From a virus, in IMG/VR virus record IMGVR_UViG_3300025853_009406, positions 1-64,000 of that record: DNA of 64,000 bases. One strand, 5' to 3'. The notes under the pieces were generated by a model, which was not told where the DNA came from, did no database searches, and was given only the letters and a program-made list of their open reading frames with translations. Both the position numbers and the translations under genes were made by a program. Numbering within the stretch: position 1 is the stretch's first letter; every line of letters begins with the position of its first letter. This document shows, one piece after another, positions 1-48,398 of this stretch.

Positions 1-517
1 TAGCATCTTCGCCAGCAATAGTAATGGTGTTATCAGTTACTGTGGTGTCAATACCTTCACCACCAGTAAACGTAAGAGTATCAGTGAGAAGAGAAACTGA
101 GTCATTAGTTCCACTATCTGCACCGACTGTCAGAGATGCAACAGCATCAATGAATGAAAGATTACCTGATCCATCTGTTGCCAGAACCTGAGATGCAGAT
201 CCATCAGTTGCTGGAAGTGTGAGATCCAGATCAGATGCCATTGTAGCAGGAGCAATCAGACGAACTTTGTTAGTTCCGTTATCTGCATCCTCATAAAAAT
301 TAACAGCACCTGGACCAGCAGTCGTTGCTCTAGAAAGGATCTGAAGACTTGCTAAGAATGTTTCAGCATTGGCAATAGATGTTCCAGCACCTGTACCATT
401 GGCACCGCTATCGCCGACATATAGTGATTTATCAGATAAATCTAATACTGGTTCTCCCTCATAAAAAATACTTCCAGGGACTCCTGTACCTCTTTTGAGT
501 TGTAATCTATTTGCCAT
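1..517 (-). CDS. Tail-fibre-like structural protein, N-terminal part (runs off the window start)
   Basis: Manual translation from ATG at 517: MANRLQLKRGTGVPGSIFYEGEPVLDLSDKSLYVGD..., typical fibre N-terminus; late promoter upstream. Confidence 0.7.
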   Translation of the reverse strand, partial: MANRLQLKRGTGVPGSIFYEGEPVLDLSDKSLYVGDSGANGTGAGTSIANAETFLASLQILSRATTAGPGAVNFYEDADNGTNKVRLIAPATMASDLDLTLPATDGSASQVLATDGSGNLSFIDAVASLTVGADSGTNDSVSLLTDTLTFTGGEGIDTTVTDNTITIAGEDA

Positions 518-6358: not shown

Positions 6359-6730
6359 TCAGAAGCTGTACGTCACACCTGCCTTAGCACCGTATCCACG
6401 GTCGATGTCGCTATCGCCGGAACCAACGAACGAGACTTCACCATAGAAACCAAGTTGCTCGGTAGCAGCGAAACCAAGACCTGCCTTACCAGAAGGAACA
6501 GTGTCAGCATCACCACCGTCAGGAGTCACTAGGGTAGCACCACCTTGGACGTAGTAGGAAGTACGCTCGCCAAGAGCACCTTCGTAACCGATGTGGAGAT
6601 CAGTCGCGGCACCATTATAGTCCGAACCGGTCCAACCAGCATTGGTTTCGACGTTTACATAAGGACCAGCGACAGCAGCGCCAGCGAACAGGGGAGCAGC
6701 AGCAAGGGCTGCGAAAGCGGATTTGATCAT
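6359..6730 (-). CDS. Small outer-membrane beta-barrel-like protein with signal peptide
   Basis: Start MIKSAFAALAAAPLF with GAGG RBS; alternating beta pattern; C-terminal GVTYSF (terminal Phe OMP signal). Confidence 0.75.
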   Translation of the reverse strand: MIKSAFAALAAAPLFAGAAVAGPYVNVETNAGWTGSDYNGAATDLHIGYEGALGERTSYYVQGGATLVTPDGGDADTVPSGKAGLGFAATEQLGFYGEVSFVGSGDSDIDRGYGAKAGVTYSF

Positions 6731-6838
6731 GTTTATACCTCTTAGATTTTTGCTTGTGGAATGGTTACCCACAGATGACAAAAGACTCGACGTGCCTTCG
6801 TTTGTTACAGTTCGTGAAGCAAGTGCTCTACGAATGTT

Positions 6839-6877: not shown

Positions 6878-7297
6878 TTACAGGATCCCAAAAGGAAGGT
6901 TGCTGAGTCCTTTAAGAGCAGATCCACCTGAAGTGGGTGGTCTCATTGGCAAGTTTGCTTTCTCTCTCTTTTCAGCTTTAAGTTCTAGCTCATAGATTCT
7001 TTCTTCCATAACTTCAATAGAAGCATGTAGATTTGTTAGATACTCAATCAAGTCTTCCTTATTTTCTACAACTTGTTTAATATCTTCTCTAAGTTCTTTT
7101 TCCTTTTTCTCAACATCAAGTTGATCTGGATCTAAAGCTCCACTTTTTGCCATGTAGTAGTCGGCAATCTCTTGACTATTATCAAGATCAATACCTTCTA
7201 ACTTGGGCGAAACTTCTTCATTTTCTTGTTCTGGATATTCATCCTCAGCATATTTAATACTGTGGATTACTTCAGTGCGTCTTGGTTCTTCTGTCAT
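6878..7297 (-). CDS. Acidic coiled-coil hypothetical protein
   Basis: 139 aa ORF coupled to pcyA stop. Confidence 0.7.
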   Translation of the reverse strand: MTEEPRRTEVIHSIKYAEDEYPEQENEEVSPKLEGIDLDNSQEIADYYMAKSGALDPDQLDVEKKEKELREDIKQVVENKEDLIEYLTNLHASIEVMEERIYELELKAEKREKANLPMRPPTSGGSALKGLSNLPFGIL

Positions 7298-8001
7298 CAG
7301 ATCTCTGGGTAATCAAACAACATTTCTTTGATGTATTTATCGGCAAACTCTTCACCAAAAATACTCCTCAATACAGCTCTGGTCTTAGTATTTTGCCTCT
7401 GCTTATCACAATAATACTTATGACCTTCGTAGTTTTCTTTAATATTTTCTGAAATAGGTTTAGTATTATATGCAATAGCACAATGATAGTTTAAATATGT
7501 GAATGCAGTATTAATAAACTTCTGATATTCATCCTCGTTTGGACTCACAAAAACGCAGTACTCAGAAAATACATCTCCCCAGTCAGGCATCTTTTTATCT
7601 TTTTCAAACTCTGTATCGAGGATGTTTAAGATTTCATATTGCTGTGGCAAAGACCTGTCTGGTCTAATAGAGCTAATATCTACGATTGCTGCACCAACTG
7701 CTTTTTCTGATGCAACAATATCTGCACCATAAATGGGAATATCATATTGATATCTTGGGTACATATTAGTGTGAAGAATATCAAGACCCGATTTCATTTG
7801 AGCGACTTCCAAATGAATCTTTCTAAACTTTTCAGTCTCCCACACATAGTTTTCAACATAAACTTCTTCTTCGTCACCAGAAGACATCTCAATGAGTTTA
7901 AACTCATCAGCAATCTCTACTTCTTGAAGATCAAAATTCTCTTGCCAACTATCCAGAATAGAATCTGCTAGTCCTTGAATAAGTGGATGTAAGTCTCTCA
8001 T
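7297..8001 (-). CDS. pcyA: Phycocyanobilin:ferredoxin oxidoreductase
   Basis: LHPLI N-terminus, FRKIHLE (Glu76 equiv.), LDILH (His88), GAD (Asp105), WGDVFSEYC, YCDKQRQNTKTRAVL. Confidence 0.88.
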   Translation of the reverse strand: MRDLHPLIQGLADSILDSWQENFDLQEVEIADEFKLIEMSSGDEEEVYVENYVWETEKFRKIHLEVAQMKSGLDILHTNMYPRYQYDIPIYGADIVASEKAVGAAIVDISSIRPDRSLPQQYEILNILDTEFEKDKKMPDWGDVFSEYCVFVSPNEDEYQKFINTAFTYLNYHCAIAYNTKPISENIKENYEGHKYYCDKQRQNTKTRAVLRSIFGEEFADKYIKEMLFDYPEI

Positions 8002-29956: not shown

Positions 29957-32086
29957 TTATGTAGACGTGAATGACATGGTAGTTATTGACTGCCCAGAGT
30001 TCAATCTCCAACGAATCAAAATGCGATTATTCGAATCATTAGATGAAGATTCTGTACCAAATACGCAAGTAAATGTTCCACTATTACCATTCATCGCTCC
30101 ACCTGAAGAACATCCTGGTTCTGCTGATGTTGGCACACCAGCACCTCTGTATGCTTGGAACATATCTGCCCAACCATTTGTTCCTGACAAAGATGATGTC
30201 CAAGTAGAGTTGTTTGGCATACAAACCCAACAACCAGCATAAGAACCAGTTACGACAATTTTAAACTCAGATACCTGAGATCTAATAAAATCCATTTGAA
30301 AATACTGTGCCCCAGTTCTACCAGAAGAATAATCTGGTCCTGCTGGTAACCAAGATCCATTTGAATAATCAGTTACATCATGACGCAGTACAGCACCTCT
30401 AACGATAGATTCATATGTAGCAGCAGTGTTAGATGCTGTAAATGTTGTAAAGACTGGTGATGGATTATCACCAGTAGAACCTGCATTTACTCTTTTAGCG
30501 TTACCAGAACCAGTTCCTAAAGAACTCACTAAGATGTTATCCTCATCAATTTTATTAGTTCTTGCAGTTGTTCCCATCATATTAACTGCCTGAGTTATAG
30601 TTGCTCTGACAGAATTTGATCCATAAGGAGTAGTTGCAGTATAGTTAGAGAACCTTGTCGTATCAGTATTAACAGTTTGATGGAGATCTCTGGGTGTCTG
30701 AGAAACTAAGCAGGTTACACCAGTACCTACACCATAATTCTGGACTGGTGGATTCGTCCCACCATCAAAATCTGTATAACTCTTAGTACCTCCATTTTGG
30801 AATCCTGTGGTTTGACCACCAGATGCCAAGAAAGTGTTCTGAGTGTACATATCACCACTAGCATTCTCACAAGTTATTACATAAGTGAATGCATTGCTAG
30901 AAGATTGTGTGTAATGTGGTACACCTGAAGAATAATTTAAGGTTGGTGAAGGTGGTGTTACTGGAGTAGTAGCACTTAATACAGGTGCAGAGACTGTACT
31001 TGGATCTTCATACCAAAAAGCGCGTTGAGTTTTATATCCAAACTGCTGAATATATCCTCTATTAAACCCATTTGGAGATGTGGCATTAATCAATCTAGCA
31101 TCATAAACTTCATAAAACTCTGAGTTAATACCAGGATTTCTAGTTGAGAAAAACGCATCCTTATCATTTGAAATCTGTAACGCACCGTAAATGCCGTCAT
31201 TTGATCCAGTTGTCAGAGTAACTACTCCAACAGAACCATCATTTATATACCCCGTTACAGTCCCTGCATCACCAGGACCATACTCTGTAATGTAGTTTGA
31301 AGTTACTGAGTTAGTGATGTTCCTATTATATTGTGTACCTGCTGATGGAGTTAACTCTCCACTAGTACTATTTGTTGGCGCAAAACCAGCACATAATCTA
31401 CCAACACCTGTCAATCCAGTCATAGTAAATACTACGTTTGAAATAGTATCGGGTGGTTTTGGTACTAGTTTTCCTAAAATAAAGTTGATTTCATTAACAG
31501 AATCTTTTGTATAATCTGCAGTCTCAATGCCAACTGCTCCTGGAAGGAATCCTCCGTTAGGAGTTCCAATGACTTGATCACCATAAAACTCTGAAGCTGT
31601 TATAAATCCAGTTACTTTTACGTCATCAATAATAGATAATCTATGATCTGGTAAGGGAAAAGATGTTCCAATACCTACACTATTTGTAGAAGGAGAAAAA
31701 ACAAATAAAGGATCAACAGATAATGATGTAATAATACCAGAAGTTGCTGTTAAAAACCCAACATACCTAGCATCATTACCAGTGGGATCTGCTAGTTTAT
31801 TTGATAAAACATTAGATAATGTGGATCCATCACCATAATATTCCGTTGCAGTAATAAATCCAGATACTATGGCATCACCATCAACGGTGATATCATTAGA
31901 TACATTAATATCTGAGGCAGTTAGTGCCCCAGATACTAAAACATCTCCTGTAACGGTTAGATCTGCGGATGCATATGTTGTACCAATGCCAACCCTACCA
32001 GTTACCTCAAGTACAGTAGAGTTTTCGGTATAAGAAGATATACCGACGCTAAGATTCCTTTTACGTTCGCTTAAAAACTTTGGCAT
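29957..32086 (-). CDS. Putative virion structural protein; paralog of 45107-47125
   Basis: Shared INFILGKLVPKPP, SSGVPHYTQ, GWADMF, FGTESSSND motifs. Confidence 0.75.
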   Translation of the reverse strand: MPKFLSERKRNLSVGISSYTENSTVLEVTGRVGIGTTYASADLTVTGDVLVSGALTASDINVSNDITVDGDAIVSGFITATEYYGDGSTLSNVLSNKLADPTGNDARYVGFLTATSGIITSLSVDPLFVFSPSTNSVGIGTSFPLPDHRLSIIDDVKVTGFITASEFYGDQVIGTPNGGFLPGAVGIETADYTKDSVNEINFILGKLVPKPPDTISNVVFTMTGLTGVGRLCAGFAPTNSTSGELTPSAGTQYNRNITNSVTSNYITEYGPGDAGTVTGYINDGSVGVVTLTTGSNDGIYGALQISNDKDAFFSTRNPGINSEFYEVYDARLINATSPNGFNRGYIQQFGYKTQRAFWYEDPSTVSAPVLSATTPVTPPSPTLNYSSGVPHYTQSSSNAFTYVITCENASGDMYTQNTFLASGGQTTGFQNGGTKSYTDFDGGTNPPVQNYGVGTGVTCLVSQTPRDLHQTVNTDTTRFSNYTATTPYGSNSVRATITQAVNMMGTTARTNKIDEDNILVSSLGTGSGNAKRVNAGSTGDNPSPVFTTFTASNTAATYESIVRGAVLRHDVTDYSNGSWLPAGPDYSSGRTGAQYFQMDFIRSQVSEFKIVVTGSYAGCWVCMPNNSTWTSSLSGTNGWADMFQAYRGAGVPTSAEPGCSSGGAMNGNSGTFTCVFGTESSSNDSNNRILIRWRLNSGQSITTMSFTST

Positions 32087-32502: not shown

Positions 32503-32844
32503 TCAGTTTAGGGTCTCAAGAACTGAAACGATAAACTTGACATCACTACTTGTACTTCCTTCAACCTTGAGGGAATCTCCCTGCTCCATAACTAGTTTTC
32601 CTGCTAATAGATTGACAGCATCATTTGCTGGGATTGGAAACTCACGGAATAGTTCGGTTGTTACCGCAATACCAGATTTGGTTCTTACATGAGAAACGCT
32701 AATATCTTGACTAGATGCTCCCACGTTTGATGCTTGTGCCAGGAGGAGTACTCCCGTGTAACCCACGGGAGCAGTATAAATTCCTACTGGTTCTGTTGAG
32801 ACAACATTAGTGATTGTCTTGAATACGTTAAGGGCTAATGCCAT
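32503..32844 (-). CDS. Small virion-associated hypothetical protein
   Basis: 113 aa, IYTAP...KLVMEQGD...SVLETLN beta-rich pattern. Confidence 0.75.
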   Translation of the reverse strand: MALALNVFKTITNVVSTEPVGIYTAPVGYTGVLLLAQASNVGASSQDISVSHVRTKSGIAVTTELFREFPIPANDAVNLLAGKLVMEQGDSLKVEGSTSSDVKFIVSVLETLN

Positions 32845-32847
32845 GGA

Positions 32848-35800
32848 TTACTCTCCTCCGAGTGCTAGAATGAATGGGGTTAGGGTTGAGAACAACGACT
32901 TGGAATATGCCGTTCCAGAGATAGTACCAGTATTCTGGTTAATGATTAGTCCGTCACCAATCTTGAAGTTACCTGACTGATCAGTACTGGTGAATACGAC
33001 CAGACCACCATTCAGATTCACAGTTTCATTTTCAGCAATAGTAACGCCACCATTCTGAGGAAGTGCAGCTTTTACATCGATACCAGAACCAATGTATTCA
33101 AATGCATGAGATGATGCGAGAACTCTACTTTGCTTGTAGAACTCAACTTCCATTCCAGCGGTTACTTCATATGGAACCTGTGCGTCAAGGGTGATTGTTG
33201 AGATTCCTGCAGAAGGATATGTTGCCTTATTAACTGTGTAGTAACTTGGATACATATCAATCACGATTCTTGCAGGTGTTCCTCCACCTATAGGAGCACC
33301 GATTGTAACGGTTGGAGGAACAATGAATCCTCTACCGCTAGAAACAACTTCAACTCCAGTTACCTGACCATTCTCGACTGTTGCGATTGCCTGTGCAGGT
33401 ACGCCCCAAGCAGTTGTTGGATTACCAATAGTAACTTCTGGAGTACTGGTATAACCAGAACCTTTAGTTGTTACTCTAATCTTGTCAACCTGATAGTATA
33501 ACTTATCAAACACAGTTACTTGACCGTCGAATGGTCTCTGTGGATTAATCTGTACTGTACCACCAGAAGTATAGAAGTGTGGGAATGGACCTTTACCTAC
33601 GTTAGCGGTAAAGTCTGTTGAAGTTGTAGCAACCGAGCATGTGGTTGGTTGACCCTTAACGATTGCGTCAGTTGCGATACCAATGAGGTTATCAATAGTA
33701 TCTTGAACATTTTGGCAAGCGTCTGGATCGTTATTGGAGTTAAGAACAGGATCAGGAGCGAGCTTGAAGTTCTTGCTATTTAGTTGATTATTGATAGCAA
33801 GTTGCATATAGTCAGCAGATGCACGGAAAGCAGTTACGGTTTCAACTTCTTCACCGATTAGTGCATCAGAGAGTGGCTTGCCAGTCTCTTGATCGAAGTA
33901 GTAGTTGGTTGCACTAATGATATTTTTATTAGTGAAGTTAAGAAGATCATTCTTAACTGCATCAACGATGTAACCAATGTCTCTTCTGCACTTAGTCTCT
34001 TGATCTAGGAGTCTACCTGCATTAGGTAAGAAGTTATCTAGTTCAGTTAGAGTACCGATTCCGATTACAGTTGTAACGATTCCGATTCTATTGTCAACTA
34101 CGTCCTGAACATCTTGACAGGTTTCAGGATTACCCGATCTTGTATAAGTGATTACTGGACCAACACCGTAGTTTGCACCACCGAAGGATAGAGTTAGATC
34201 CTTAGTATAGAGTTGGTTAGTTAGAGCACCCTTCATGTAATCACCTGCCTTACCGAAAGCAGTTACAGATTCAGATCTTTCACCATACAGACCTGGAGTT
34301 AGTGGTTGACCAGTTCCAGTGAAGTATTGCTTAGTGAAGTCTCTTGAATAAGTATTACCTCCGAGGAATACGTCAGTTGAAACAGCGTCAACTAGGTATC
34401 CAATGTCTCTTGCACACTTATAACCACCTGGGGAAGAAGTAGTTCCGAGACCAACGAAGTCATCTGCATCAGTTCCATAACCAACTGTCTGACCAAACTC
34501 GCCTGGTTGTAAGTAGAAATAACCATTGTTGATACCGTATGTTCCATCATAAAGTGCTGCAGTGTTACCTGCGGCAACTACGACTGTTACAATACCAACT
34601 AGGTTTTCAATGTTTGCCTGAACATCTGCACAGGTTTCACCATTACCCGAAGCATTATACTGGATATTACCACCAGCACCATTGTAAGATGCAGGACCGA
34701 AGGTTAAAGTTAGATCCTTAGAATATAGTTGGTTAGTTACTGCTCGCTTCATGAGAGGTTCAGCAGCTTCAAATGCGGTTAGTGAAGGTGCGAGTTCACC
34801 GTCTAGTCCGCCTCTGATTACTGATCCATCAGCGTAGTAGTATTGCTCAGAGAATCCTCTGGAATATCTATTACCACCAGTAAACACGTCAGTTGATACT
34901 GCATCAACTAAGAATCCAAGGTCTCTAGCACACTTGTAACCGCCAGGGTTCTCAGTGGTTCCGATACCAGTTCCTCTGTCGAAGATTCCAGTATCATAAG
35001 TTAGAGCGCCGAATGAAGCAGTGCTTCCAGCACCAAGAGAAACAGTTACAATACCAACCAGAGTATCAATGTTATCCTGAACATCTAAGCAGGAATTCTC
35101 GTTTCCAGACTGTAGAACAGGGATAGAGGAACCGATACCATAGTACTGAGGACCAGATGAAATACCAAGATCCTTAGTATAGAGTTGGTTAGTGATTGCA
35201 TCCTTCATCCACTCACCGCCACCCATTAAACCAACGATTGTTGGAGCAACTTCATTTCCATCAATGTGAATAGCACCAGACTGGTTGAAGTATTGCTTGG
35301 TAAACTCTTGTGAGTATCTGTTACCAGAAGTGAATACGTCGGTTGCGACGGCATCAACAAAGAATCCAACGTCTCTTGCACACTTATAACCACCTGGAGT
35401 GTTAGTTGTACCAACACCAACTGATTGATCAAATAGACCAGTGTTGAGTGGGAATGTAATAGAAGCAGTGCTTCCAGCACCAAGAGAAGATGTTACGATT
35501 CCAGCGAGAGTATCAATGGTATCTTGAATATCCTGACATGCAGTTGAAGAAGTGTTAGCAACGTCTGAACCCTCATTTCCTGCATTATATGTTGGGTTAC
35601 CAACTGAGATTGTTAGATCAGAGTATGTAGCGCCAACTAAAGAGTTAGTAATTGCATTGAGCATGTACCCTCTTGCTTGATCAAAGACATAGAGTGACTC
35701 ATCCATCTCACCCTGTAGACCATTAGAGATTAGTGAACCATTTTCAAAATATTGGAAGGTGAACTCAGAAGCATAAGTATTACCACCAGTTAGTACATCA

Positions 35801-38800
35801 AGAGCAACTGCATCAATGAAGAATCCAGTATCTCTCTTACACTTCTCTTCAACTGAAGCGAAGTTGAATGAACTGAATAGTGGGTTATTGACTGCATCGG
35901 TGAACGCTGCGCCAACGATTACCTCCTTATTGAGTTGAATCATTCTGTAAGCATCATAATATCTTGATCTTCCGTTAGACTGTGCGTCACCTGGGAAGTA
36001 GAATGCATCATAAGCATCATAACCTTGAGCAATAGAACCGATAGATCTATCGATAACTTCTTGCTTGTTCTGTTGGATTAGACGATATGAATCGAAGTAT
36101 CTGTACTGCTCATCATCTCTCTCATCAAATCCAGTGTTAAGAGTTGGGAGTTGTGAAGTGGTTCCTAGACCAACTGCAACAGTTGCAATACCAACTAGGT
36201 TCTCGATTAGGTCTTGAACATCTGCACAAGATGATGCGCTTCTGTTATCATTAGTGACGTAATCGGGAGAAATAGTTAGGTCTTGAGCATTGAGTTGGTT
36301 AGTTACTGCTCCTCTTGCGAGATCGCCAAGTGCAGTGAATGCGGTAACTGACTCAGACTCTTCACCGAGTAGACCATCAGAGATTGGATTACCATTACCA
36401 TCGAAGTATGATAGAGCGAATCCAACAACATTATCGTTAGAACCTGCCCATACATCCTCTGCGAGTGCGGAGTGTAGATAACCAAGATCTCTAGCACACT
36501 TAAATCCGCCTGGGGATGCTACAGTACCAACACCCGACTGGTTAAAGTAACCAACATTTAATGTTGGAAGACTATTGGTTGATCCAAATCCTACTGCAGT
36601 GGTAACCACTCCAACTAGGTTTTCAATGTTTGCTTGGACATCAACACAAGCTTCAGCATTACCAGAAGGTAGTACAGGGATGGAAGAACCAGCGCCTGCA
36701 TAAATCGCTTTACCTGGTGAGATTGTTAGATCTTTGACGTTGAGTTGGTTAGTGATTGCCTTTCTTGCATAGAATCCTGCGTAATCGAAGGAAACAACAC
36801 TTGGAGACTCTTCGCCAGTCAGACTTGCTGTTGGTGAACCTGCCCCATCAAAGTAGAATAGAGTGAAATCTCTTGTGTAGCTATTACCACCTGTAAATAC
36901 ATCAGTTGCAACGGCATCAACAAGGTAACCAATATCTCTTGCACACTTAGTACCACCAGGAGATAGAGTACCGAAGTCTTCCATCTGGAGTGATAACTTG
37001 GTGAATGGATCAGTGTTGACTACAAAGTTACCAGTATTGAGAGCATCGCCAGAAGGTAGTTGTGTAGTGGTTCCGAGACCAACTGCAACTGTTACGATAC
37101 CAACTAAGTTCTCAATAGCAGACTGAACATCAATACAAGCATTAGCATTACCAGAGATTAACACAGGTAGTTTAGTATCATCGGTACCGTATCTAGCAGT
37201 ACCAGAAGAAATGCCAACATCCTTAGAGTTAAGTTGGTTGGTAACTGCCTTCTTCATGAAGGTCTCTGCAGAATCAAATGCTACAAGTGATTGTGCTTCT
37301 TCACCAACCAGACCATTGCTGATTGGAAGTCCAGCGCCATCAAAGTATTGAAGAACGAACTCTCTAGAATAGCTGTTGCCTCCAGTAAATACGTCGGTTG
37401 AAACTGCATCAACTAAGAATCCAATATCTCTAGCACACTTGAATCCACCTGGGGATGAAGTAGTACCAATACCAGATTGTGAGAAGTAACCATCGTTGAT
37501 TGATGTAGGAACGTCTGCGAATGTTGCGGTTGTACCAATAGAAACAACTGCAGTAACAACTCCAACGAGAGTATCAATGTTATCCTGAACATCAATACAT
37601 GCTGCTGCATTACCCGAAGGAAGAACTGCAATATCTCCACCAGCACCACCATAAGTAGCAGCACCAGAAGAAATGCCAACATCCTTTCTATAAAGTTGGT
37701 TGGTGATTGCGTCCTTCATGAACTCACCAGCAGCAATGAATGCAGTGTTTGAAGGAGCTTCTTCGCCTAGTAGACCTGTCTTAATCCATCCACGATAGGT
37801 TGGTTCATATGACTTGACAGAATCGATTGTTGTTCTTACGAATGTATGTGCAGACTGTGGAAGATGCTTGATTGCTCCAGCGATTGCACTTACAAATGTA
37901 TGTGCTGTTTGTGGTTCATGTCTAATAGCATTACACTCAGCACGTACAAATGTGTGTACAGAACCTGATGCAGAACCAGCATTTCCAACATTAACTGTGA
38001 ATGTACCAGTCTGCCTCTCAAGACCGTTTGCAGATGCACTTACAAATGTGTGAGTTCCAGTGTAGTCAGCAGCACCAATATTAATCTTGAAGGTGTTATC
38101 AGTCTTCTCACTGATCTGTAACCAGCGACCTGATGGATAATCATATCCAGCGCGTGGATATGACTTAGATACTGTGTTACCATCTAGTTCGCAAGTGAAG
38201 GTTAGTGAACCATCATCAAGTTTAATATAATCTTCATTAGCAAATCCATGAGAAGCAACTGTTAGAACAACATCTCCAGTTGCAGGGTCATAAGTTGCTG
38301 CAGTTACAGTATGAGTGGAAACGCCAACTTCATTGATCGCAGTTGCGATACCTGAGATTGGATTGCCTGCTGCAGGATATGCATGTTCAGTAGCATTTCC
38401 ATCCTGGTCACAAGTGAAGATCATTGACTCATCTTCAATAATGACTGCACGACCAACGCCAAGACCATGCTGACCAACAGTAACAGTTAGATCACCAGTT
38501 GCTGCATTATAAGTAGCAGCAGTTGGATCAAAGTACTTGTTAGGACCAGACTTACCTACATTAACGGTTAGAGAATCATCTGTAACACCAGTAATCTTGA
38601 TTGATCTACCTGCGTATGGATCGATTCCTGGACGTGGATATGTCTTCTGTGCTTGATTATTATCAAATGCACAAGTGAAGGTGAAAGAGTTGTCCTCGAT
38701 GATAACACCCTCTCCAACACTCAGTGAGTGCTCACCAACAGTAACGGTGAAGTCACCAGTTGCAGGATCATATGTTGCTGCAGTTGGGTTGAATGACCAG

Positions 38801-41800
38801 TCAGTACCAGAAGCACCAACATTAACAGTCACTGATGTTGCACTAGTTCCAGTAATCGTTAGAGGAGAGTTATATGCAACTTGACCTTTTGCTGGTAGAG
38901 AGTGCTCACTCTTATTGCCATCCATTGCACAAGTGAAAGTGAAGCTTTCCTTGTCTAGGAAGATAACATCAGATGTTTGTAGTGGGTGATCTGCACCAAC
39001 AATCATCGTGAAGTCGCCAGTTGCAGGATTATAAGTTGCAGAAGTTGGTGTCCAACCTGCTGCCTCTTGGAAGTTATTTTGTAGATAACCAATAGCGTAG
39101 GAGTTACCTCCAGTAAATACGTCAGTTGAAACAGCGTCAACTAAGAATCCAAGATCTCTAGCACACTTAAGTCCACCAGGAGAATAGGAGCTAATACCAA
39201 GTGCCTGGTTAAACTCACCTACGTCTAGAGTTCCTTGACTTGTAGGTAGTTCTGAAGTTGTACCGATACCTACAGCGTAAGTAACAATTCCGACTAGTGC
39301 ATCAATACTATCCTGAACATCTAGACATGCATTTGCATTACCAGATCTTAGAACCTCAATGTTAGGACCGCCACCTCCGAAGTATGCTTTACCCGAAGAA
39401 ATGCCAACATCCTTATTGAAGAGTTGGTTAGTTACTGCATCCTTCATGTATTCGCCAGCAGATTCAAATGCGACGACTGAAGGACCTTCTTCACCTAGAA
39501 GACCATTAATGATTGGAGCAGCATTATCAAAATACTGCAATGCAAATCCATCTGCATAGTAGTTACCAGCAGTGAATAGGTCAGTTGAAATAGAATCGAT
39601 GAAGAAACCAAGGTCTCTTGCACACTTATAACCACCTGGTGATGAAGTAGTACCAACACCAACAGACTGGTTGAAGTAACCATAGTTGATAGTTGCCGTT
39701 ACATCAGATGCAGTTGCAGTGGTTCCTAGACCAACAACTGAAGTAACGATACCGATTAGGTTATCAATGTTGTTCTGAACGTCAATACATGAAGCTTCGT
39801 TACCAGATCTTAGAACAGCAATATCACCTCCACCACCACCATAAGAAGCAGGACCAGATGAAATACCAAGATCCTTAGTATAGAGTTGGTTAGTGATTGC
39901 GTCCTTCATGAACTCACCAGCTCCGATGAATCCATATAGAGACTGTAGTTCTTCTTCGTATAGACCCTCACTGATTGGATTACCAGTTCCATCATCGAAG
40001 TACTCAAGGATAAACTCTCTAGAATAGAGGTTACCGCCAGTAAATACGTCAGTTGAAACTGAATCGATTAGGAATCCGATGTCTCTAGCACACTTGAATC
40101 CTCCTGGAGTTGCAGTGGTTCCGATACCTGCTTGGTTGAAGATACCGAGATTTCTTGTACCAGCGAAGGAGGTTGTATTTGCCTCAGTAATAGCATCAGT
40201 TACGATTGTAACTAGGTTTTCAATGTTTGTTTGTACGTTAGCACAAGCACCAGTATCAGTATTTGAAGATGCTAGAGGATCAGTTGTAATACCAACATCA
40301 GTATAGGTTAGGTTGTTAGCAATAGCTAACTTCATTCTGTCTCTTGCTTCATTGAAAGCGTAGATGGATTGAACCTCTTCGCCACCAATACCATTATCAT
40401 AGATAGCATCATTCTCAAAATATTGTAGAGTAAAGTCTTGAGAATATGCGTTACCACCAGTTAGAATGTCAAGAGAAATGGCATCAATAAAGTAACCAAG
40501 GTCTCTCTTACACTTAGTTTCAGTGCTAAGGATACCAGGATACTGAGTTCTTGTAGCATTCCAAGAACCATTAATAATCTCATCTTTGTTTTTCTGGATC
40601 AGACGATATGAATCATAGTATCTGGAACGTGCATTTGTCTCTTCATCACCAGGGAATACCCAATCAGTTGGATAAAGATCATAGTTAACAGTGATGTTAC
40701 CAATAGATCTATCAATAATTTCTCTTCTGTTCTGTTGGATTAGACGATATGAATCGAAGAATCTTGATCTTTCATTAGTTTGAAGATCGTTAGGGAAGTA
40801 GAAATCAGGATAACTGATAGAGATAGATGCTAGTGACTTATCAATAATCTCCTGTCTATTCTGTTGGATTAGACGATATGAATCATAGTATCTGGATCTT
40901 GCTGTAGTTTGAGAATCGCCTGGGAAATAAAAGTCTGGATGCTCTAATGAAATAGCAGCAAGTGACTTATCAATAACTTCTTGTCTGTTCTGCTGGATTA
41001 GGCGATATGAATCGAAATATCTTGAGCGAGCATTGGTCTCAAGATCTCCAGGGAAGTAGAATTGATCATACTTAGTTGCAATAGAAGCAAGTGACTTATC
41101 AATAATCTCTTGCTTGTTCTCATTGATTAAACGATATGCATCATAGAATCTTGATCTTGCATTGGTCTCTGTATCGCCAGGGAAGAAGAAATCGTCATAG
41201 TTGTCATAATCTAATGAGATAGAAGCAAGGGACTTATCAACAATTTCTTGCTTGTTCTGAAGGATTAGACGATAAGAATCATAGAATCTAGATCTATCAG
41301 TCGTCTCTGCATCATCAGGGAAGTAGAAATCTGGGTGATATAGACCGATAGTCGCAAGAGACTTATCAATGATTTCATCTTTATTTGAGTTAATAAGATT
41401 AAATGAATCTTTAAATCTGTTTCTTGAAGTATCTGGGAAGTAGAAATCTGGGTGGCCAATAGCAATCTGTGCTAGCGACTTATCAATAACTTCCTGTCTG
41501 TTCTTCTGGATCAGACGATATGAATCAAAGAATCTTGATCTTGCGTTTGTCTGATTATCATTAGGGAAATAGAAATCAGGATGCTCAACAGCAATCTCTG
41601 CAAGTGATCTATCAATGATCTCTTGCTTATTATGTTGGATTAGACGATATGAATCAAAGAATCTTGATCTTGAGTTAGTCTCTTCTTCGCCTGGGAATAC
41701 AAAATCAGGATGCTTATAAGAGATAGAAGCAAGTGCCTTGTCAAGAATCTCAGTTTTGTTTGCTTCGATTGACTCGCTAGCATCACTATATCTACCAGGA

Positions 41801-42897
41801 GCAACAGACTTAACTTCAAAAATAGTACCGTAGTTACCTGTTGGATATAGAAGTGTCTCCTGACCACCGTCTGAAGTGCAAGTAAATCCTAAACCTGCAA
41901 TGGTAACACCCATACCAACACTTAGTTCGTGTTGTCTGTCGAGTGTGAATGAAGTAACTCCTGTTACATGATCATAAACAGCATCAACAACATTCATTAC
42001 AGGGGCGTTTGCATCAATCTTAATCTCAAAAGTAGATGCATCTACACCTGCATTTGATGTTACGACACCAACATATTTGAGAGGTCCGACGCCATCAGCG
42101 ACAAGACCGAAGTTGCCGAATGATGAGTTAGAGTTGGTAAGGTCGCAAGCACCACCTGACTGGCAGAGGATTGCGGTATCTGAACAGATGGTGAACATGG
42201 ACACCAACTGAGCGAATGCTTCGTTGAAGATTTTAGCACCTAAACCACCTGGGTTAATCTGGGTATAGGAGTCAAGAACCATGGACTTAATAGGTCCAAT
42301 GGCATACTTACCATCAATGTTTAGACCAATAGTGCCTGGAATGAAGTTTGTACAGTTCTGAATATATGGCGATTGGTCAATATAAGGAACAACTTCTGGG
42401 TTAAATGTAACGATTGCGCCATCGGATTTTTGTGCTGGTCCAATGAATGACATCTCTGCGATGTAGCATCCATTGTCTAACCAGAACAAGTCTCCTTGAT
42501 TTTTTGGTGTAACCGTAACTTCACGAAGTGAGTCGCCAACGACTGACACATTGTCGGGAAGTACGATTGGGTTATCTTCTAGATAAACTCCAGCACTAAT
42601 TTTAATAACAGTTCCTGGGACAGACTCTGCGACGGCAGCTTTAATGGTTCTTTTTGCGTCTCCGAGTTTCTTACCTGTGTTGTTGTCGTTACCATCTTGT
42701 GTTACATATAGGACATTAATAACGGTCGCACCAGCACCAACTCTTACAATGTCTGTTCCAATACCTGGCCTATTTCTGGCCATGTAAAGTTCGCCATCAT
42801 TAGTATTAATGGCCATTTCTCCTAGAGGGAGATCAGAGACTGTAGGTTTTTTGTTAGGTACTGAAGACCTTTTGAATCTAATTTTAGGACTTGCCAT
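32848..42897 (-). CDS. Giant putative virion protein with pectin-lyase-like N-terminal region and 12 nested phycobiliprotein-like domains
   Basis: Fibre-type N-terminus (IRFKRSS..P..L..GE.AIN), YVTQDGND/GDSLR/SPYIQNCT; 12x KC(A/K/R)RD; 12x C-x-(D/N)-(V/I)-Q; 12x D-x4-I-x2-N-x3-I. Confidence 0.8.
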   Translation of the reverse strand: MASPKIRFKRSSVPNKKPTVSDLPLGEMAINTNDGELYMARNRPGIGTDIVRVGAGATVINVLYVTQDGNDNNTGKKLGDAKRTIKAAVAESVPGTVIKISAGVYLEDNPIVLPDNVSVVGDSLREVTVTPKNQGDLFWLDNGCYIAEMSFIGPAQKSDGAIVTFNPEVVPYIDQSPYIQNCTNFIPGTIGLNIDGKYAIGPIKSMVLDSYTQINPGGLGAKIFNEAFAQLVSMFTICSDTAILCQSGGACDLTNSNSSFGNFGLVADGVGPLKYVGVVTSNAGVDASTFEIKIDANAPVMNVVDAVYDHVTGVTSFTLDRQHELSVGMGVTIAGLGFTCTSDGGQETLLYPTGNYGTIFEVKSVAPGRYSDASESIEANKTEILDKALASISYKHPDFVFPGEEETNSRSRFFDSYRLIQHNKQEIIDRSLAEIAVEHPDFYFPNDNQTNARSRFFDSYRLIQKNRQEVIDKSLAQIAIGHPDFYFPDTSRNRFKDSFNLINSNKDEIIDKSLATIGLYHPDFYFPDDAETTDRSRFYDSYRLILQNKQEIVDKSLASISLDYDNYDDFFFPGDTETNARSRFYDAYRLINENKQEIIDKSLASIATKYDQFYFPGDLETNARSRYFDSYRLIQQNRQEVIDKSLAAISLEHPDFYFPGDSQTTARSRYYDSYRLIQQNRQEIIDKSLASISISYPDFYFPNDLQTNERSRFFDSYRLIQQNRREIIDRSIGNITVNYDLYPTDWVFPGDEETNARSRYYDSYRLIQKNKDEIINGSWNATRTQYPGILSTETKCKRDLGYFIDAISLDILTGGNAYSQDFTLQYFENDAIYDNGIGGEEVQSIYAFNEARDRMKLAIANNLTYTDVGITTDPLASSNTDTGACANVQTNIENLVTIVTDAITEANTTSFAGTRNLGIFNQAGIGTTATPGGFKCARDIGFLIDSVSTDVFTGGNLYSREFILEYFDDGTGNPISEGLYEEELQSLYGFIGAGEFMKDAITNQLYTKDLGISSGPASYGGGGGDIAVLRSGNEASCIDVQNNIDNLIGIVTSVVGLGTTATASDVTATINYGYFNQSVGVGTTSSPGGYKCARDLGFFIDSISTDLFTAGNYYADGFALQYFDNAAPIINGLLGEEGPSVVAFESAGEYMKDAVTNQLFNKDVGISSGKAYFGGGGPNIEVLRSGNANACLDVQDSIDALVGIVTYAVGIGTTSELPTSQGTLDVGEFNQALGISSYSPGGLKCARDLGFLVDAVSTDVFTGGNSYAIGYLQNNFQEAAGWTPTSATYNPATGDFTMIVGADHPLQTSDVIFLDKESFTFTCAMDGNKSEHSLPAKGQVAYNSPLTITGTSATSVTVNVGASGTDWSFNPTAATYDPATGDFTVTVGEHSLSVGEGVIIEDNSFTFTCAFDNNQAQKTYPRPGIDPYAGRSIKITGVTDDSLTVNVGKSGPNKYFDPTAATYNAATGDLTVTVGQHGLGVGRAVIIEDESMIFTCDQDGNATEHAYPAAGNPISGIATAINEVGVSTHTVTAATYDPATGDVVLTVASHGFANEDYIKLDDGSLTFTCELDGNTVSKSYPRAGYDYPSGRWLQISEKTDNTFKINIGAADYTGTHTFVSASANGLERQTGTFTVNVGNAGSASGSVHTFVRAECNAIRHEPQTAHTFVSAIAGAIKHLPQSAHTFVRTTIDSVKSYEPTYRGWIKTGLLGEEAPSNTAFIAAGEFMKDAITNQLYRKDVGISSGAATYGGAGGDIAVLPSGNAAACIDVQDNIDTLVGVVTAVVSIGTTATFADVPTSINDGYFSQSGIGTTSSPGGFKCARDIGFLVDAVSTDVFTGGNSYSREFVLQYFDGAGLPISNGLVGEEAQSLVAFDSAETFMKKAVTNQLNSKDVGISSGTARYGTDDTKLPVLISGNANACIDVQSAIENLVGIVTVAVGLGTTTQLPSGDALNTGNFVVNTDPFTKLSLQMEDFGTLSPGGTKCARDIGYLVDAVATDVFTGGNSYTRDFTLFYFDGAGSPTASLTGEESPSVVSFDYAGFYARKAITNQLNVKDLTISPGKAIYAGAGSSIPVLPSGNAEACVDVQANIENLVGVVTTAVGFGSTNSLPTLNVGYFNQSGVGTVASPGGFKCARDLGYLHSALAEDVWAGSNDNVVGFALSYFDGNGNPISDGLLGEESESVTAFTALGDLARGAVTNQLNAQDLTISPDYVTNDNRSASSCADVQDLIENLVGIATVAVGLGTTSQLPTLNTGFDERDDEQYRYFDSYRLIQQNKQEVIDRSIGSIAQGYDAYDAFYFPGDAQSNGRSRYYDAYRMIQLNKEVIVGAAFTDAVNNPLFSSFNFASVEEKCKRDTGFFIDAVALDVLTGGNTYASEFTFQYFENGSLISNGLQGEMDESLYVFDQARGYMLNAITNSLVGATYSDLTISVGNPTYNAGNEGSDVANTSSTACQDIQDTIDTLAGIVTSSLGAGSTASITFPLNTGLFDQSVGVGTTNTPGGYKCARDVGFFVDAVATDVFTSGNRYSQEFTKQYFNQSGAIHIDGNEVAPTIVGLMGGGEWMKDAITNQLYTKDLGISSGPQYYGIGSSIPVLQSGNENSCLDVQDNIDTLVGIVTVSLGAGSTASFGALTYDTGIFDRGTGIGTTENPGGYKCARDLGFLVDAVSTDVFTGGNRYSRGFSEQYYYADGSVIRGGLDGELAPSLTAFEAAEPLMKRAVTNQLYSKDLTLTFGPASYNGAGGNIQYNASGNGETCADVQANIENLVGIVTVVVAAGNTAALYDGTYGINNGYFYLQPGEFGQTVGYGTDADDFVGLGTTSSPGGYKCARDIGYLVDAVSTDVFLGGNTYSRDFTKQYFTGTGQPLTPGLYGERSESVTAFGKAGDYMKGALTNQLYTKDLTLSFGGANYGVGPVITYTRSGNPETCQDVQDVVDNRIGIVTTVIGIGTLTELDNFLPNAGRLLDQETKCRRDIGYIVDAVKNDLLNFTNKNIISATNYYFDQETGKPLSDALIGEEVETVTAFRASADYMQLAINNQLNSKNFKLAPDPVLNSNNDPDACQNVQDTIDNLIGIATDAIVKGQPTTCSVATTSTDFTANVGKGPFPHFYTSGGTVQINPQRPFDGQVTVFDKLYYQVDKIRVTTKGSGYTSTPEVTIGNPTTAWGVPAQAIATVENGQVTGVEVVSSGRGFIVPPTVTIGAPIGGGTPARIVIDMYPSYYTVNKATYPSAGISTITLDAQVPYEVTAGMEVEFYKQSRVLASSHAFEYIGSGIDVKAALPQNGGVTIAENETVNLNGGLVVFTSTDQSGNFKIGDGLIINQNTGTISGTAYSKSLFSTLTPFILALGGE

Positions 42898-47181: not shown

Positions 47182-47706
47182 TTAGTCAATTTGTTTGTCG
47201 AACTCAAACATCCCATACTCTGATCCCCATACCATTTTTTTAGTTACAGGATCATATCCCCTATCAATAACTCTATAAGTATTTTTTCTCAATTCAGACA
47301 TGGTAAATAAGAACGATTCTTTACCATTTTTATTTACCATACATTCACACCCCATGATCATACCATAATAAACACCATTCTGTTTAGTAAAAATACAATC
47401 ACAGTTCTCATTCTTTTCTAAATCATCTTCAGTGATTTTATCTATATCAGTGAAATATAAAAATCTTTTACCATCCTTCACTTTATAACTACTAACTATT
47501 AGTTTATCTTCATACTGATTTATCTCCAGAACAAACTGTCTATAAGGAGGTTGTTTGCGAACAGAATATTTCTGTTCTCCATAAATCATATTATTACTTA
47601 ATAACTCATGACGTAAACTAATCTGAGAATATTGTGAAGGGTATGAAAATGCTTGTTTTCGATTATGAAAAGATCCAAGTAACCATTCTGTAAACTCCTC
47701 AATCAT
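47182..47706 (-). CDS. cpcT: T-type phycobiliprotein lyase (CpcT/CpeT family)
   Basis: G.F.NRKQA..P, YGEQ..PYRQ, C.C.F, DRGYD..VWGS..G.FEF. Confidence 0.9.
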   Translation of the reverse strand: MIEEFTEWLLGSFHNRKQAFSYPSQYSQISLRHELLSNNMIYGEQKYSVRKQPPYRQFVLEINQYEDKLIVSSYKVKDGKRFLYFTDIDKITEDDLEKNENCDCIFTKQNGVYYGMIMGCECMVNKNGKESFLFTMSELRKNTYRVIDRGYDPVTKKMVWGSEYGMFEFDKQID

Positions 47707-48398
47707 TCAGTACTACCTCTTCTTTGATGACGTATTAATGTAGAAAATAATACCTTACCAATAGCAGATATTAGATTACCTTCAATTTCATTAAAGACAT
47801 TCATATTTAGTTTGAATGCTAGATTAGCTTCTTTGATAATCTCATCGATTTCATTTTGATCGAAAGGAAGAGTATCTAATACATCTCTATAATCTCCCTT
47901 AAAAACTTTTTCATCTTTAATATCTTTAAAAATATAAAAGTTCATCCCAACATCAGGAACTTTTAAAGCAGATTGAGCAATATTTTTCAATACTTGTCCA
48001 CCAGAAAGATCGCCAATATACCTAGTATAATGATGTGCAATCAATAAGTCTTGATTTTCATTAGATACCTCTTTAATCCTGGCAACATATTCTTTGCAAG
48101 ATTTTGTTTGAGTAATCCTTTCTTTCCAATCATATCCTAGATAATATTCTAAATCTTTTTCTAAAGATTTTTTTCTGAAGAGTTGTGGAAAATAAATGTT
48201 TGACACAATCATATCATCTTTGTGTCTTTCAAACTCTTCTTCCATCGCGGAATAGATATGGTACAAGTCTGATAGTAATCTTACATAAGATTTCTTTTCA
48301 ACCACACCTTTGAGAAAACAGGTAATGAAACCTGTATTCTCTGCCATAGTGTGAGATTTTTTAGTACCTTCTCTTATTTGTTGTGATAGGTTAGACAT
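47703..48398 (-). CDS. ho1: Ferredoxin-dependent heme oxygenase
   Basis: REGTKKSHTMAENTGF, AHHYTRYIGDLSGGQ, EANLAFKLN. Confidence 0.96.
   Translation of the reverse strand: MSNLSQQIREGTKKSHTMAENTGFITCFLKGVVEKKSYVRLLSDLYHIYSAMEEEFERHKDDMIVSNIYFPQLFRKKSLEKDLEYYLGYDWKERITQTKSCKEYVARIKEVSNENQDLLIAHHYTRYIGDLSGGQVLKNIAQSALKVPDVGMNFYIFKDIKDEKVFKGDYRDVLDTLPFDQNEIDEIIKEANLAFKLNMNVFNEIEGNLISAIGKVLFSTLIRHQRRGSTE

Follow-up and report, generated by a model that had tools for sequence, protein, structure and literature searches.

The window analysed here, a stretch of 64,000 nucleotides, raises the question of what is built by a giant phage protein in which two cysteine motifs resembling the bilin sites of phycobiliproteins (PBPs) recur, and whether these motifs hold pigment. 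The region that first drew attention (33652-41796) corresponds to residues 368-3082 of a minus-strand open reading frame (32848..42897; ORF list and translation), which encodes a tail-fibre-type virion protein of 3,349 aa (P0001). The protein matches phrog_4527, phrog_5342 and phrog_17885, each a tail-fibre family, and is close in size to S-PM2 p091 (3,338 aa), recorded as 'tail fiber protein' and placed among the virion structural proteins; a probable virion protein had been proposed, and both comparisons bear this out. The gene product is a giant fibre of a marine T4-like cyanophage. Its N-terminal region (aa 1-367; 41797..42897, minus strand) matches the tail fiber protein family phrog_17885 over aa 5-296, contains six further cysteines, is common to other phage fibre proteins and recurs in similar form in P0011 and P0013, relatives of the tandem type. 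The C-terminal domain (aa 3081-3349; 32851..33657, minus strand) matches phrog_3442 over aa 3117-3346 and is kept in relatives of both the nested and the tandem type (P0011, P0013, P0024, P0090).

Between these ends the motif KCxRD occurs 12 times, with its lysine at aa 795, 935, 1091, 1244, 1820, 1984, 2133, 2352, 2505, 2655, 2827 and 2969, and Cx[DN][IV]Q also 12 times, at aa 885, 1037, 1191, 1767, 1921, 2084, 2224, 2454, 2603, 2756, 2927 and 3061. Shuffling the protein 2,000 times yielded on average 0.002 and 0.0165 occurrences, respectively, with a maximum of 1 for either motif, and KC[AKRQ]RD was found in no other frame of the window. The original observation of 12 copies, each with both cysteines, is matched by the counts in the 3,349-aa frame, and the computed codons of the first cysteine, Cys1 (40510-40512 to 33988-33990), agree with all 12 positions given there. 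In an alignment of 57 complete units, the K, C, R and D of KCxRD never vary. CXRD is described, in the accessible part of Rockwell et al. 2023 (PMC10151467), as the bilin-binding motif of PBPs and of some bilin biosynthesis-associated globins (BBAGs).

The arrangement of the pieces, all on the minus strand, was resolved mainly by HMM matches. A first array of ten N-halves of about 43 aa, each predicted to supply globin-core helices A and B (aa 368-796; 40510..41796; ten matches to the N-half HMM), leads into unit C1 (40186..40521; helices E-H, KCKRD at aa 795, Cys2 at aa 885), assigned from AlphaFold2, Foldseek, VIA and PF00502. There follow unit C2 (39730..40101; helices E-H, Cys 936 and 1037), an HMM match that also lies within a 355-aa model, unit C3 (39268..39633; helices E-H, Cys 1092 and 1191; HMM match at model positions 1-122, and motifs) and the first part of unit C4 (39058..39174; helix E and the start of F, Cys 1245), matched at model positions 1-39 only. 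The second part of C4 (37540..37788; helices G-H, Cys2 at aa 1767; model positions 41-122) comes after an insert of 423 aa (aa 1281-1703; 37789..39057), delimited by the two HMM-matched halves, which consists of beta-rich repeats, about five in number and some 86 aa long, with one cysteine each (1323, 1409, 1496, 1569 and 1655) and matches phrog_1276 over aa 1364-1458. Units C5, C6 and C7 (36169..37446; Cys pairs 1821/1921, 1985/2084 and 2134/2224; HMM matches and motifs), a second array of two N-halves (aa 2262-2350; 35848..36114; HMM matches) and units C8-C12 (33658..35850; Cys pairs 2353/2454, 2506/2603, 2656/2756, 2828/2927 and 2970/3061; HMM matches and motifs) complete the series.

As judged from sequence profiles and predicted structures, the units are real, distant relatives of PBPs, the pigment proteins with which the host harvests light, and have a globin-like fold. 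The PBP-like character that had been claimed for them is upheld by PF00502, PDB profile searches, AlphaFold2, Foldseek and VIA alike. The protein scored 36.4 bits against PF00502 (cut-off 22.2, E 6.3e-9; best stretch aa 762-828), and 5 of 8 relatives scanned also exceeded the cut-off; among PDB matches at E<=1, PBPs accounted for 26 of 27 in one profile search and 28 of 28 in the other. Modelling of aa 757-907 (unit C1 with the tenth N-half) by AlphaFold2 without templates gave pLDDT 90.0 and pTM 0.87, and the fold was globin-like, not the non-globin fold that would have refuted the original idea. Foldseek returned TM 0.63-0.76 for this model, the matches listed all being PBPs or the 'bacterial fluorescent protein' 8u0f, and VIA aligned 128-135 of its 151 residues with PBP beta chains (Z 16.0-17.7, rmsd 1.9-2.3 Å), the 50 matches listed all being beta-type chains or 8u0f. 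Identity to PBPs is only 11-17% and the X-Y hairpin is missing; the two helices of the modelled N-half overlie the beta chain from residue 34 onward. Profiles and models together show residues 368-3082 as 12 predicted PBP globin cores (helices A, B, E, F, G and H) lacking that hairpin.

The register of the cysteines was examined by alignment and superposition. HMMER against solved phycocyanin alpha chains placed Cys1 on residue 84, with the GG turn in register, and so reproduced the proposed alignment of KCARDIG with Cys84, Arg86 and Asp87. Two further ungapped alignments to the beta chain, one of them covering Cys155, were too weak for HMMER but are consistent with the superposition ranges, in which model residues 1..148 lie on beta-chain residues 34..172 (phycocyanin) or 34..177 (phycoerythrin). 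Cys129 of the modelled unit directly precedes helix H (130-150) and falls at beta-153/158 by arithmetic from the range ends, not by residue-level alignment. Sequence alignment for Cys1, and superposition ranges only for Cys2, support a location of both kept cysteines at beta-subunit bilin positions.

Only 2 of the 12 units are contiguous domains (KC at 795 and 2352): C1 is continuous with the tenth N-half, forming a complete domain, and C8 with the twelfth, the other ten consisting of helices E-H only. The order of the 12 N-halves and 12 E-H units is 10, 7, 2, 5, and from this order PBP copies would be threaded one within another, each inner domain occupying the B-E loop of the domain that encloses it; the chain would run out through ten A/B halves, back through seven E-H halves, out again through two at a fork, and back through five. 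Among 51 other nested-type proteins, piece numbers are equal in 13, of which 12 are perfectly balanced (3.3 expected at random). A 355-aa model of two N-halves and two E-H units including C2 reached pLDDT 85.3 and pTM 0.87. Complex prediction for the ninth N-half with C2 gave 0.53 (runs 0.53, 0.52 and 0.58), the best of three controls giving 0.02; at least 71% of contacts agreed between runs and partner pLDDT was at least 58. Of 157 solved complexes, 116 reach the mark used, as do 2 of 215 mismatched pairs, and passing scores at 0.60 or below belong to only 18 of the 157 but to both passing mismatches; these counts apply only roughly to a prediction made with its own alignments, and the pass may reflect memory of solved PBP structures. 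The result hints at pairing of the ninth N-half with C2.

Genes for bilin metabolism are present on the same strand. A T-type bilin lyase gene, cpeT (47182..47706; PF06206 E 4e-36, 125 bits, cut-off 21; phrog_488), lies 4.3 kb upstream of the fibre gene; its start is overlapped by 4 bases by a heme oxygenase gene (47703..48398; PF01126 at 47787-48392, E 5.1e-80, 264 bits), and the two span 4.3-5.5 kb upstream. A ferredoxin-dependent bilin reductase gene is at 7297..8001 (PF05996 E 5.4e-53, 180 bits, cut-off 31). Scheer and Zhao 2008 (PMC2327270), in the excerpt consulted, describe T-type lyases as site-specific for Cys-beta155. In S-RSM4, Syn1 and S-WAM2 the homologous giant gene has a full-length cpeT 0.7-1.3 kb upstream; cpeT is no more than 2 kb from the domain matches in S-PM2, and in S-CAM3, S-RIM44, S-CAM4, Sf-FP1 and Sf-CH1a it precedes the first domain match by 1.3-2.4 kb. 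This adjacency can be explained by gene order conserved among related phages. Of 28 complete cyanomyovirus genomes tested, 25 encode the domain, with 1 to 14 matches each, in giant proteins of fibre or baseplate type. None of the 19 with cpeT lacks it and 6 of the 25 have no cpeT (one-sided Fisher 0.026, kinship ignored and 8 of the 28 chosen for having cpeT), a co-occurrence that carries little weight because the domain is so widespread. Since P-SSM2 has the reductase and not the domain, phage bilin genes do not serve the fibre protein alone.

A tandem-type subfamily allows the two cysteines to be considered separately. Of its 1,178 units, 1,159 retain Cys1, 1,149 Arg and 1,172 Asp, and a second cysteine occurs in 7 of the 79 units with helix H aligned, these proteins having about 1.5 cysteines per unit. 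As CxRD is kept there without a conserved second cysteine, a disulfide with Cys2 does not in general account for Cys1, and the disulfide alternative is weakened, if only indirectly, by this comparison. The two bilin sites also lie far apart in the PBP fold. Cys2 itself is kept with or without a phage cpeT (B23 5/5, DSL-LC03 3/3 and 1/1, S-SSM4 2/2, S-RIM14 4/4, ACG-2014f 1/2), an independence that counts against bilin attachment. Tandem-type carriers mostly have no bilin gene on the contig; psbA was found in none of 18 contigs, and one 96%-complete genome lacks psbA, cpeT, reductase and heme oxygenase. The hosts of these phages may be without bilin synthesis.

Light-dependent adsorption offers a further comparison. 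According to the part of PMC6628666 available, P-HM1 and P-HM2 fail to adsorb without light, S-PM2 adsorption depends on light and does not require host photosynthesis, and darkness does not prevent the adsorption of P-SSM2, P-SSP7 and P-GSP1. The domain is present in P-HM1, P-HM2 and S-PM2 and absent, even at E<=0.1, from P-SSM2, P-SSP7 and P-GSP1, a correlation over six phages that include two pairs of close kin and two podoviruses. PBP-bound bilins are generally photo-inert. The BBAG holoproteins tested were likewise reported to be photoinactive or photoinert (PMC10151467), and this inertness counts against gating by light.

It is very improbable that the likeness to PBPs is a convergent helical bundle with a chance motif. 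A single unit scores 18.7 bits against PF00502, under the cut-off, the best PDB E-values were 0.003 and 0.016, and helical models may reach Z of about 13-14 in VIA through arrangement alone; the Z values of C1, at about 2 Å, exceed that background, PBPs make up 54 of the 55 PDB matches, and sequence and structure share their register at Cys84. Some other pocket ligand (heme, another tetrapyrrole or a metal), or a catalytic or redox Cys1, is improbable too: a globin-superfamily fold with a lone kept cysteine beside Arg and Asp could do other chemistry, and the motif persists in tandem-type phages without bilin genes, but the helix E motif and its spacing exactly match the phycocyanin alpha bilin site, no position of proximal-histidine type is prominent among the invariant columns, and bilin genes are close by.

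A more serious possibility, though rated below even, is that a PBP fold captured from a host was reused as a rigid helical module setting fibre length, free of bilin, its Cys, Arg and Asp being kept for folding, inter-chain contacts, or disulfides or other thiol links making the particle tougher in sea water. The presence of the domain in giant fibre and baseplate-type proteins at varying number suits a building block, copy number being free to vary with the pieces still balanced, and the persistence of Cys2 without cpeT and the scarcity of bilin genes in tandem-type carriers agree with this. So does the insertion site, which adjoins the pocket: an inserted domain in place of the B-E loop, as in 10 of the 12 units, could ruin it. 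Against a purely structural role, about 98% of tandem units, and every complete unit aligned, retain the three residues of CxRD that contact bilin, the remaining sequence having drifted to about 25-45% identity, and neither the lone Cys1 of the tandem type nor the distance between the two sites favours a general disulfide.

That the fibre units bind bilin is possible, at just short of an even chance, and the best explanation overall, offered with the same reserve, is a fibre of nested PBP-like units loaded with bilin, which would give the virion a pigmented fibre. In the infected cell the heme oxygenase and bilin reductase of the phage would supply the units with bilin. Autocatalysis or an S-type lyase of the host would load Cys1, a T-type lyase, either the phage CpeT or that of the host, would load Cys2, and the virion would be released with its fibre pigmented. 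Up to 24 bilin sites might be occupied, as originally supposed, with photoprotection, light sensing or phycobilisome mimicry as conceivable roles; the role of the pigment is the least certain step, with light-gated adsorption as a first guess. Pigmented cyanophage particles are not known to have been reported. Fibre domains related to PBPs, with the pigment-attachment residues kept, now make virion pigment and light sensing testable.

Among known systems the closest in structure are the PBP beta subunits (CpcB, CpeB, cryptophyte beta chains; PF00502), with which the phage units share the globin core from helix A to H, CxRD on helix E in register with Cys84, and a long G-H loop ending, by range arithmetic, in a second cysteine at beta-153/158. 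They differ in the lack of the X-Y hairpin, in the low identity and in showing no sign of alpha/beta pairing or ring assembly; a free PBP subunit has about 170 aa, whereas the virion protein holds 12 copies in one chain, ten of them split by the next copy. ApcE, the core-membrane linker, likewise has a PBP domain within a large multi-domain protein, and this domain carries a loop insertion; unlike the fibre, it has one PBP domain followed by linker repeats, is an intracellular part of the phycobilisome and shows no recursive nesting. Its bilin domain attaches bilin autocatalytically, as stated in the excerpt of PMC2327270. In the accessible part of Rockwell, Martin and Lagarias 2023 (PMC10151467), BBAGs are distantly related PBP paralogues that do not belong to the antenna; some have CXRD, and those tested attached bilins without lyases. 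Their genes lie near those for heme oxygenase and bilin reductase, much as heme oxygenase and cpeT lie near the fibre gene, but they are cellular, single-domain proteins found in bacteria, and phages are mentioned in that part only for PcyX/PcyA. Full-text literature searches found no description of PBP-like domains in a cyanophage fibre, and the records of the family, which read tail fiber, short tail fiber, baseplate wedge or virion structural protein, do not mention such a domain. S-PM2 p091, Syn1_032 and SRSM4_214 (PHROG 4527, 5342) belong to this same family and share the N- and C-terminal regions and the units, so that the 3,349-aa protein is one more member of the giant fibre and baseplate proteins of T4-like cyanophages.

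The fibre gene is a single reverse-strand ORF (32848-42897, 3,349 aa), and the interval 33652-41796, to which the original prediction had assigned twelve phycobiliprotein-like copies with both bilin-attachment cysteines, corresponds exactly to residues 368-3082 of its product. Twelve KCxRD motifs carrying the first cysteine (Cys1) and twelve Cx[DN][IV]Q motifs carrying the second (Cys2) were counted in alternating order, which bears out the number of copies, and all twelve computed Cys1 codons agree with those predicted. Cys1 and Cys2 are 89-101 residues apart in eleven units and 522 residues apart in the fourth. In 2,000 shuffles of the fibre protein each motif occurred at most once, and no KCxRD-type motif was found in the remaining frames of the 64-kb window.

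The phycobilisome protein family PF00502 matched the whole protein with 36.4 bits (E 6.3e-9), above the curated cut-off of 22.2, while only one of eleven units gave a match when taken alone, at 18.7 bits and thus under that cut-off. The halves of unit 4 were kept unjoined, and this unit was excluded from alignments A1-A3. A profile built from 11 units retrieved 27 sequences from the PDB at E<=1, namely 26 phycocyanin or related chains and one antibody (E 0.92). All 28 sequences retrieved with a profile from 57 complete units, drawn from this window and 55 distinct IMG/VR relatives, were phycobiliproteins; the best individual E-values of the PDB searches, 0.003 and 0.016, are marginal. HMM alignments reproduced the proposed match to Cys84, Arg86 and Asp87 of phycocyanin alpha, with the following IGY and the GG turn also in register. 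This CxRD motif of helix E is present in 12/12 units, and its K, C, R and D are invariant in 57/57 complete units. Identity to phycobiliproteins is only 11-17%, a weak point for the bilin reading. Homology of the units to phycobiliproteins, together with the shared fold, is considered as good as shown.

The fold was predicted with AlphaFold2, without templates, for residues 757-907 (pLDDT 90.0, pTM 0.87). The model is globin-like, with helices A, B, E, F, G and H, and the AlphaFold and Foldseek check that had been suggested thus turned out in favour of the original prediction. Among the matches listed by Foldseek, at TM 0.63-0.76, there were only phycobiliproteins or 8u0f ('bacterial fluorescent protein'). 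VIA-align gave Z 16.0-17.7 and rmsd 1.9-2.3 Å over 128-135 aligned residues in 50 rows, the partner being a beta-type chain or 8u0f in all 50 rows listed; these values exceed the Z of ~13-14 that, according to the tool, helical models may score through arrangement alone. Model residues 1-148 superpose on chain residues 34-172 of phycocyanin beta or 34-177 of phycoerythrin beta, hence the unit amounts to the A-B-E-F-G-H globin core minus the X-Y hairpin. This N-terminal hairpin, the builder of the alpha-beta monomer, is absent from the single-unit superpositions, every one of whose 50 rows has its start between chain residues 32 and 35; with a two-unit model certain rows extend to chain residue 1-7 by borrowing helices from the neighbouring N-terminal half. 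In the model Cys2 is residue 129 of the unit, one residue ahead of helix H (130-150). Counted back from the ends of the superposed ranges, and not by residue-level alignment, it would fall on beta-153 of phycocyanin and beta-158 of phycoerythrin, the second bilin sites of the beta subunits.

Only the units KC 795 and KC 2352, named by the position of the K of KCxRD, are directly preceded by their own A and B helices, and the other ten start a few residues before Cys1. The A/B halves, pieces of ~43 residues corresponding to the DSYRLIQ repeats noticed earlier, were located by HMM search, ten within aa 368-796 and another two within aa 2262-2350, giving 12 halves for 12 E-H units. The pieces follow one another as 10 halves, 7 units, 2 halves and 5 units, which corresponds to a balanced string of brackets. 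The same nested type was found in 51 other proteins of the family set, which comprised the best 150 representatives of 904 proteins at E<=0.001. The numbers of halves and units are equal in 13 of the 51, and 12 of these 13 are perfectly balanced, versus 3.3 expected under random order. A single surplus unit is seen in 27 of the 51, mostly a leading one, whose matching half the HMM may overlook.

A 355-residue model of two halves and two units had pLDDT 85.3 and pTM 0.87, with the outer half at pLDDT 94-96. Complex prediction for the ninth half with unit C2 scored 0.53, the best of 3 controls scoring 0.02; 71% or more of the contacts recurred between runs, and the pLDDT of the partner was at least 58. 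The verdict was 'weak support'. Of 157 solved complexes, 116 reach the mark applied, as do 2 of 215 mismatched pairs; for scores of 0.60 or less, the passes comprise only 18 of the 157 together with both of these mismatches. The alignments supplied were made for this analysis, and the predictor may have drawn on solved phycobiliproteins. Taken together, it is likely that the units are nested, copy inside copy. Unit 4 is further interrupted between helices F and G by a 423-residue insert of beta-rich repeats, which may be a tip or receptor-binding module on a side branch. The insert (37789-39057, reverse strand, aa 1281-1703) consists of about five 86-aa repeats with one Cys each and matches phrog_1276, as does a small ORF (32503-32844, reverse strand) directly downstream of the fibre gene.

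That the units belong to a virion protein, as had been proposed, is upheld by matches to tail-fibre/baseplate giant families of Kyanoviridae (phrog_4527, E 0; phrog_5342, E 1e-259; phrog_17885, E 2e-170) and by terminal regions in common with such proteins. With tblastn, 318 phage records came up, each bearing the name of a cyanophage, of Synechococcus or Prochlorococcus, or of a marine virus. Public records name the relatives tail fibre, baseplate or structural proteins, and ten relatives are annotated 'hypothetical protein' or carry no annotation. In many cyanomyoviruses, among them S-RIM2, Syn9, P-RSM4, S-RIM8, S-RIM14, S-SSM4 and S-WAM1, the units lie in frames of 6,000-6,900 aa at ~50-76 kb whose annotation reads hypothetical protein or virion structural protein; in DSL-LC03 and MED4-213 they lie in frames of 4,110-4,460 aa annotated as baseplate wedge. 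The domain is thus not limited to one fibre gene.

Other genes on the reverse strand of the window were also recorded. A second giant ORF (16689-29936, 4,415 aa) has long collagen-like G-x-Q triplet repeats in its later part and a C-terminus resembling a fibre chaperone or trimerisation end; it contains no KCxRD and only 2 Cys. The fibre gene region is bracketed by two paralogous ORFs of phrog_8578 (29957-32086, 709 aa, and 45107-47125, 672 aa), and the same region includes large glycosyltransferase-like genes at 8432-11425 (phrog_2835) and 48404-50173 (phrog_33732). The ORF 6359-6781, adjoining the bilin reductase gene, matches the family of the cyanophage outer-membrane-protein-like beta-barrel (PF24653, E 1.6e-50).

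A second fibre subfamily, the tandem type, accounts for 95 of the best 150 representatives and has 6 to 34 complete units per protein in a plain row. Among its 1,178 units, 1,159 keep Cys1, 1,149 the Arg and 1,172 the Asp, while Cys2 is found in just 7 of 79 whose helix H could be aligned; three such proteins have 29-48 Cys in total for 20-34 units. Nested-type units scorable for the second Cys keep it in 182 of 184 cases. Since the tandem type retains Cys1 without Cys2, Cys1, Arg and Asp are selected independently of Cys2, and a Cys1-Cys2 disulfide is not the general reason for Cys1. [quoted passage not shown] 2023, PMC10151467). [quoted passage not shown] Close behind ranks a purely structural role of the units, a serious contender if not the favoured one. 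The B-E insertion site of the nested units adjoins the putative bilin pocket, which counts as a weakness of bilin attachment. The 18 contigs carrying the tandem type contain psbA in 0, cpeT in 4, a reductase in 3 and heme oxygenase in 3 cases; the last three genes occur together in just one tandem-type lineage, and one 96%-complete genome is devoid of all four. If the hosts of tandem-type phages are without bilins, CxRD must have another use. A psbA-less lineage in IMG/VR (G045, G046, G047 and G050; loci L165, L168, L169 and L172) combines a tandem-type fibre with CxRD units, cpeT and an adjoining pair of heme oxygenase and bilin reductase genes, and one of its genomes, of 271 kb, is rated 100% complete.

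Three bilin-related genes are found on the reverse strand of the window: heme oxygenase (47703-48398; PF01126, E 5e-80), cpeT (47182-47706; PF06206, E 4e-36), overlapping it by four bases, and a bilin reductase (7297-8001) ~25 kb from the fibre gene. Heme oxygenase and cpeT are 4.3-5.5 kb upstream of the fibre gene, separated from it by five ORFs, one of which resembles a fibre-assembly protein. T-type lyases such as CpcT are described as acting specifically at the Cys-beta155 site (Scheer and Zhao 2008, PMC2327270), and in the model Cys2 appears to hold this position. In S-RSM4, Syn1 and S-WAM2 the homologous giant gene has a full-length, high-scoring cpeT 0.7-1.3 kb upstream; a cpeT of this form also lies within 2 kb of the domain matches in S-PM2 and 1.3-2.4 kb ahead of the first domain match in S-CAM3, S-RIM44, S-CAM4, Sf-FP1 and Sf-CH1a. 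Among IMG/VR contigs carrying the domain, most of which are fragments, cpeT was found in 8 of 40 and in 2/2 of those at least 90% complete; it is ~10 kb or less from the domain in 7 of the 8.

Among 28 complete genomes, the domain is present in 25, 19 with cpeT (the call for P-HM1 being by tblastn alone) and 6 without, none has cpeT only and 3 have neither. This co-occurrence was given little weight because the domain is near-universal, eight genomes were chosen for cpeT, and S-CAM9 and S-8S56, which both lack the domain, are of one genus. Several genomes speak against a strict link of cpeT and domain: the 6 of 25 domain-bearing complete genomes without cpeT still keep Cys2, for which no dependence on cpeT was found, P-SSM2 has the reductase and lacks both domain and cpeT, and in some phages cpeT is remote from the domain. 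Phage cpeT comes in two forms: the full-length one (E 1e-35 to 1e-44 vs PF06206) tends to sit just upstream of a nested-type fibre gene, and the shorter one (frames of ~135-165 aa, two weak partial matches) lies far from the domain, e.g. in P-HM2 and Syn9; contigs G026 and G036 carry both.

Adsorption in the dark was reported as absent for P-HM1 and P-HM2 and present for P-SSM2, P-SSP7 and P-GSP1, and light-sensitive receptors or tail fibres are among the possible causes named (Liu et al. 2019, PMC6628666). Adsorption of S-PM2 is reported to depend on light and not on host photosynthesis (Jia et al. 2010, cited in Liu et al. 2019, PMC6628666). P-HM1, P-HM2 and S-PM2 all carry the domain, which was not detected in P-SSM2, P-SSP7 and P-GSP1, even at E<=0.1. 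All six phages therefore agree, but P-HM1 and P-HM2 belong to a single species, podoviruses make up two of the three negatives, and the domain is carried by most cyanomyoviruses; the correlation is a lead that further phages could easily break. A light-sensing role of the fibre is a bold guess, with the chances well against it. Similarly improbable as a whole is a joint reading, in which the fibre would be a virion-borne biliprotein whose twelve units receive their bilin while the cell is infected, at Cys2 through the phage CpeT, the pigmented fibre then acting as light sensor in the light-dependent adsorption, known for long, of cyanomyoviruses such as S-PM2 and P-HM2. If true, a phage-side substrate would exist for phage cpeT and for some of the bilin pathway of the phage.

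The role of phage cpeT has been called 'unresolved', and that of phage pcyA and pebS 'a mystery' (Sullivan et al. 2010, PMC3037559). One candidate answer to the roles of these genes and to light-dependent adsorption lies in a fibre that bears a conserved bilin-site motif and whose gene has heme oxygenase and a T-type lyase close by on its upstream side. Even without bilin binding, the capture of a host fold by a virus and its unusually deep domain nesting would stand. No description of a phycobiliprotein-like domain in a phage virion protein was found in the published literature, where supplementary tables could hold a mention, and a full-text search for 'PF00502' together with 'phage' returned no paper.

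Phycobiliproteins are known as antenna subunits. Use of their fold as the unit repeated along a virus fibre, with copies probably threaded inside one another, gives the family a setting and an architecture that are both new. Phycobiliproteins are free subunits of ~160-185 residues that form rings and phycobilisome rods, whereas the units described here are segments of a single chain of 3,349 aa whose ends are of fibre type. BBAG paralogues of phycobiliproteins have been known in bacteria since 2023 (Rockwell et al. 2023, PMC10151467). The globin gene of BBAGs is clustered with heme oxygenase or bilin reductase. For the fibre gene, heme oxygenase and cpeT are 4.3-5.5 kb and the reductase ~25 kb away.
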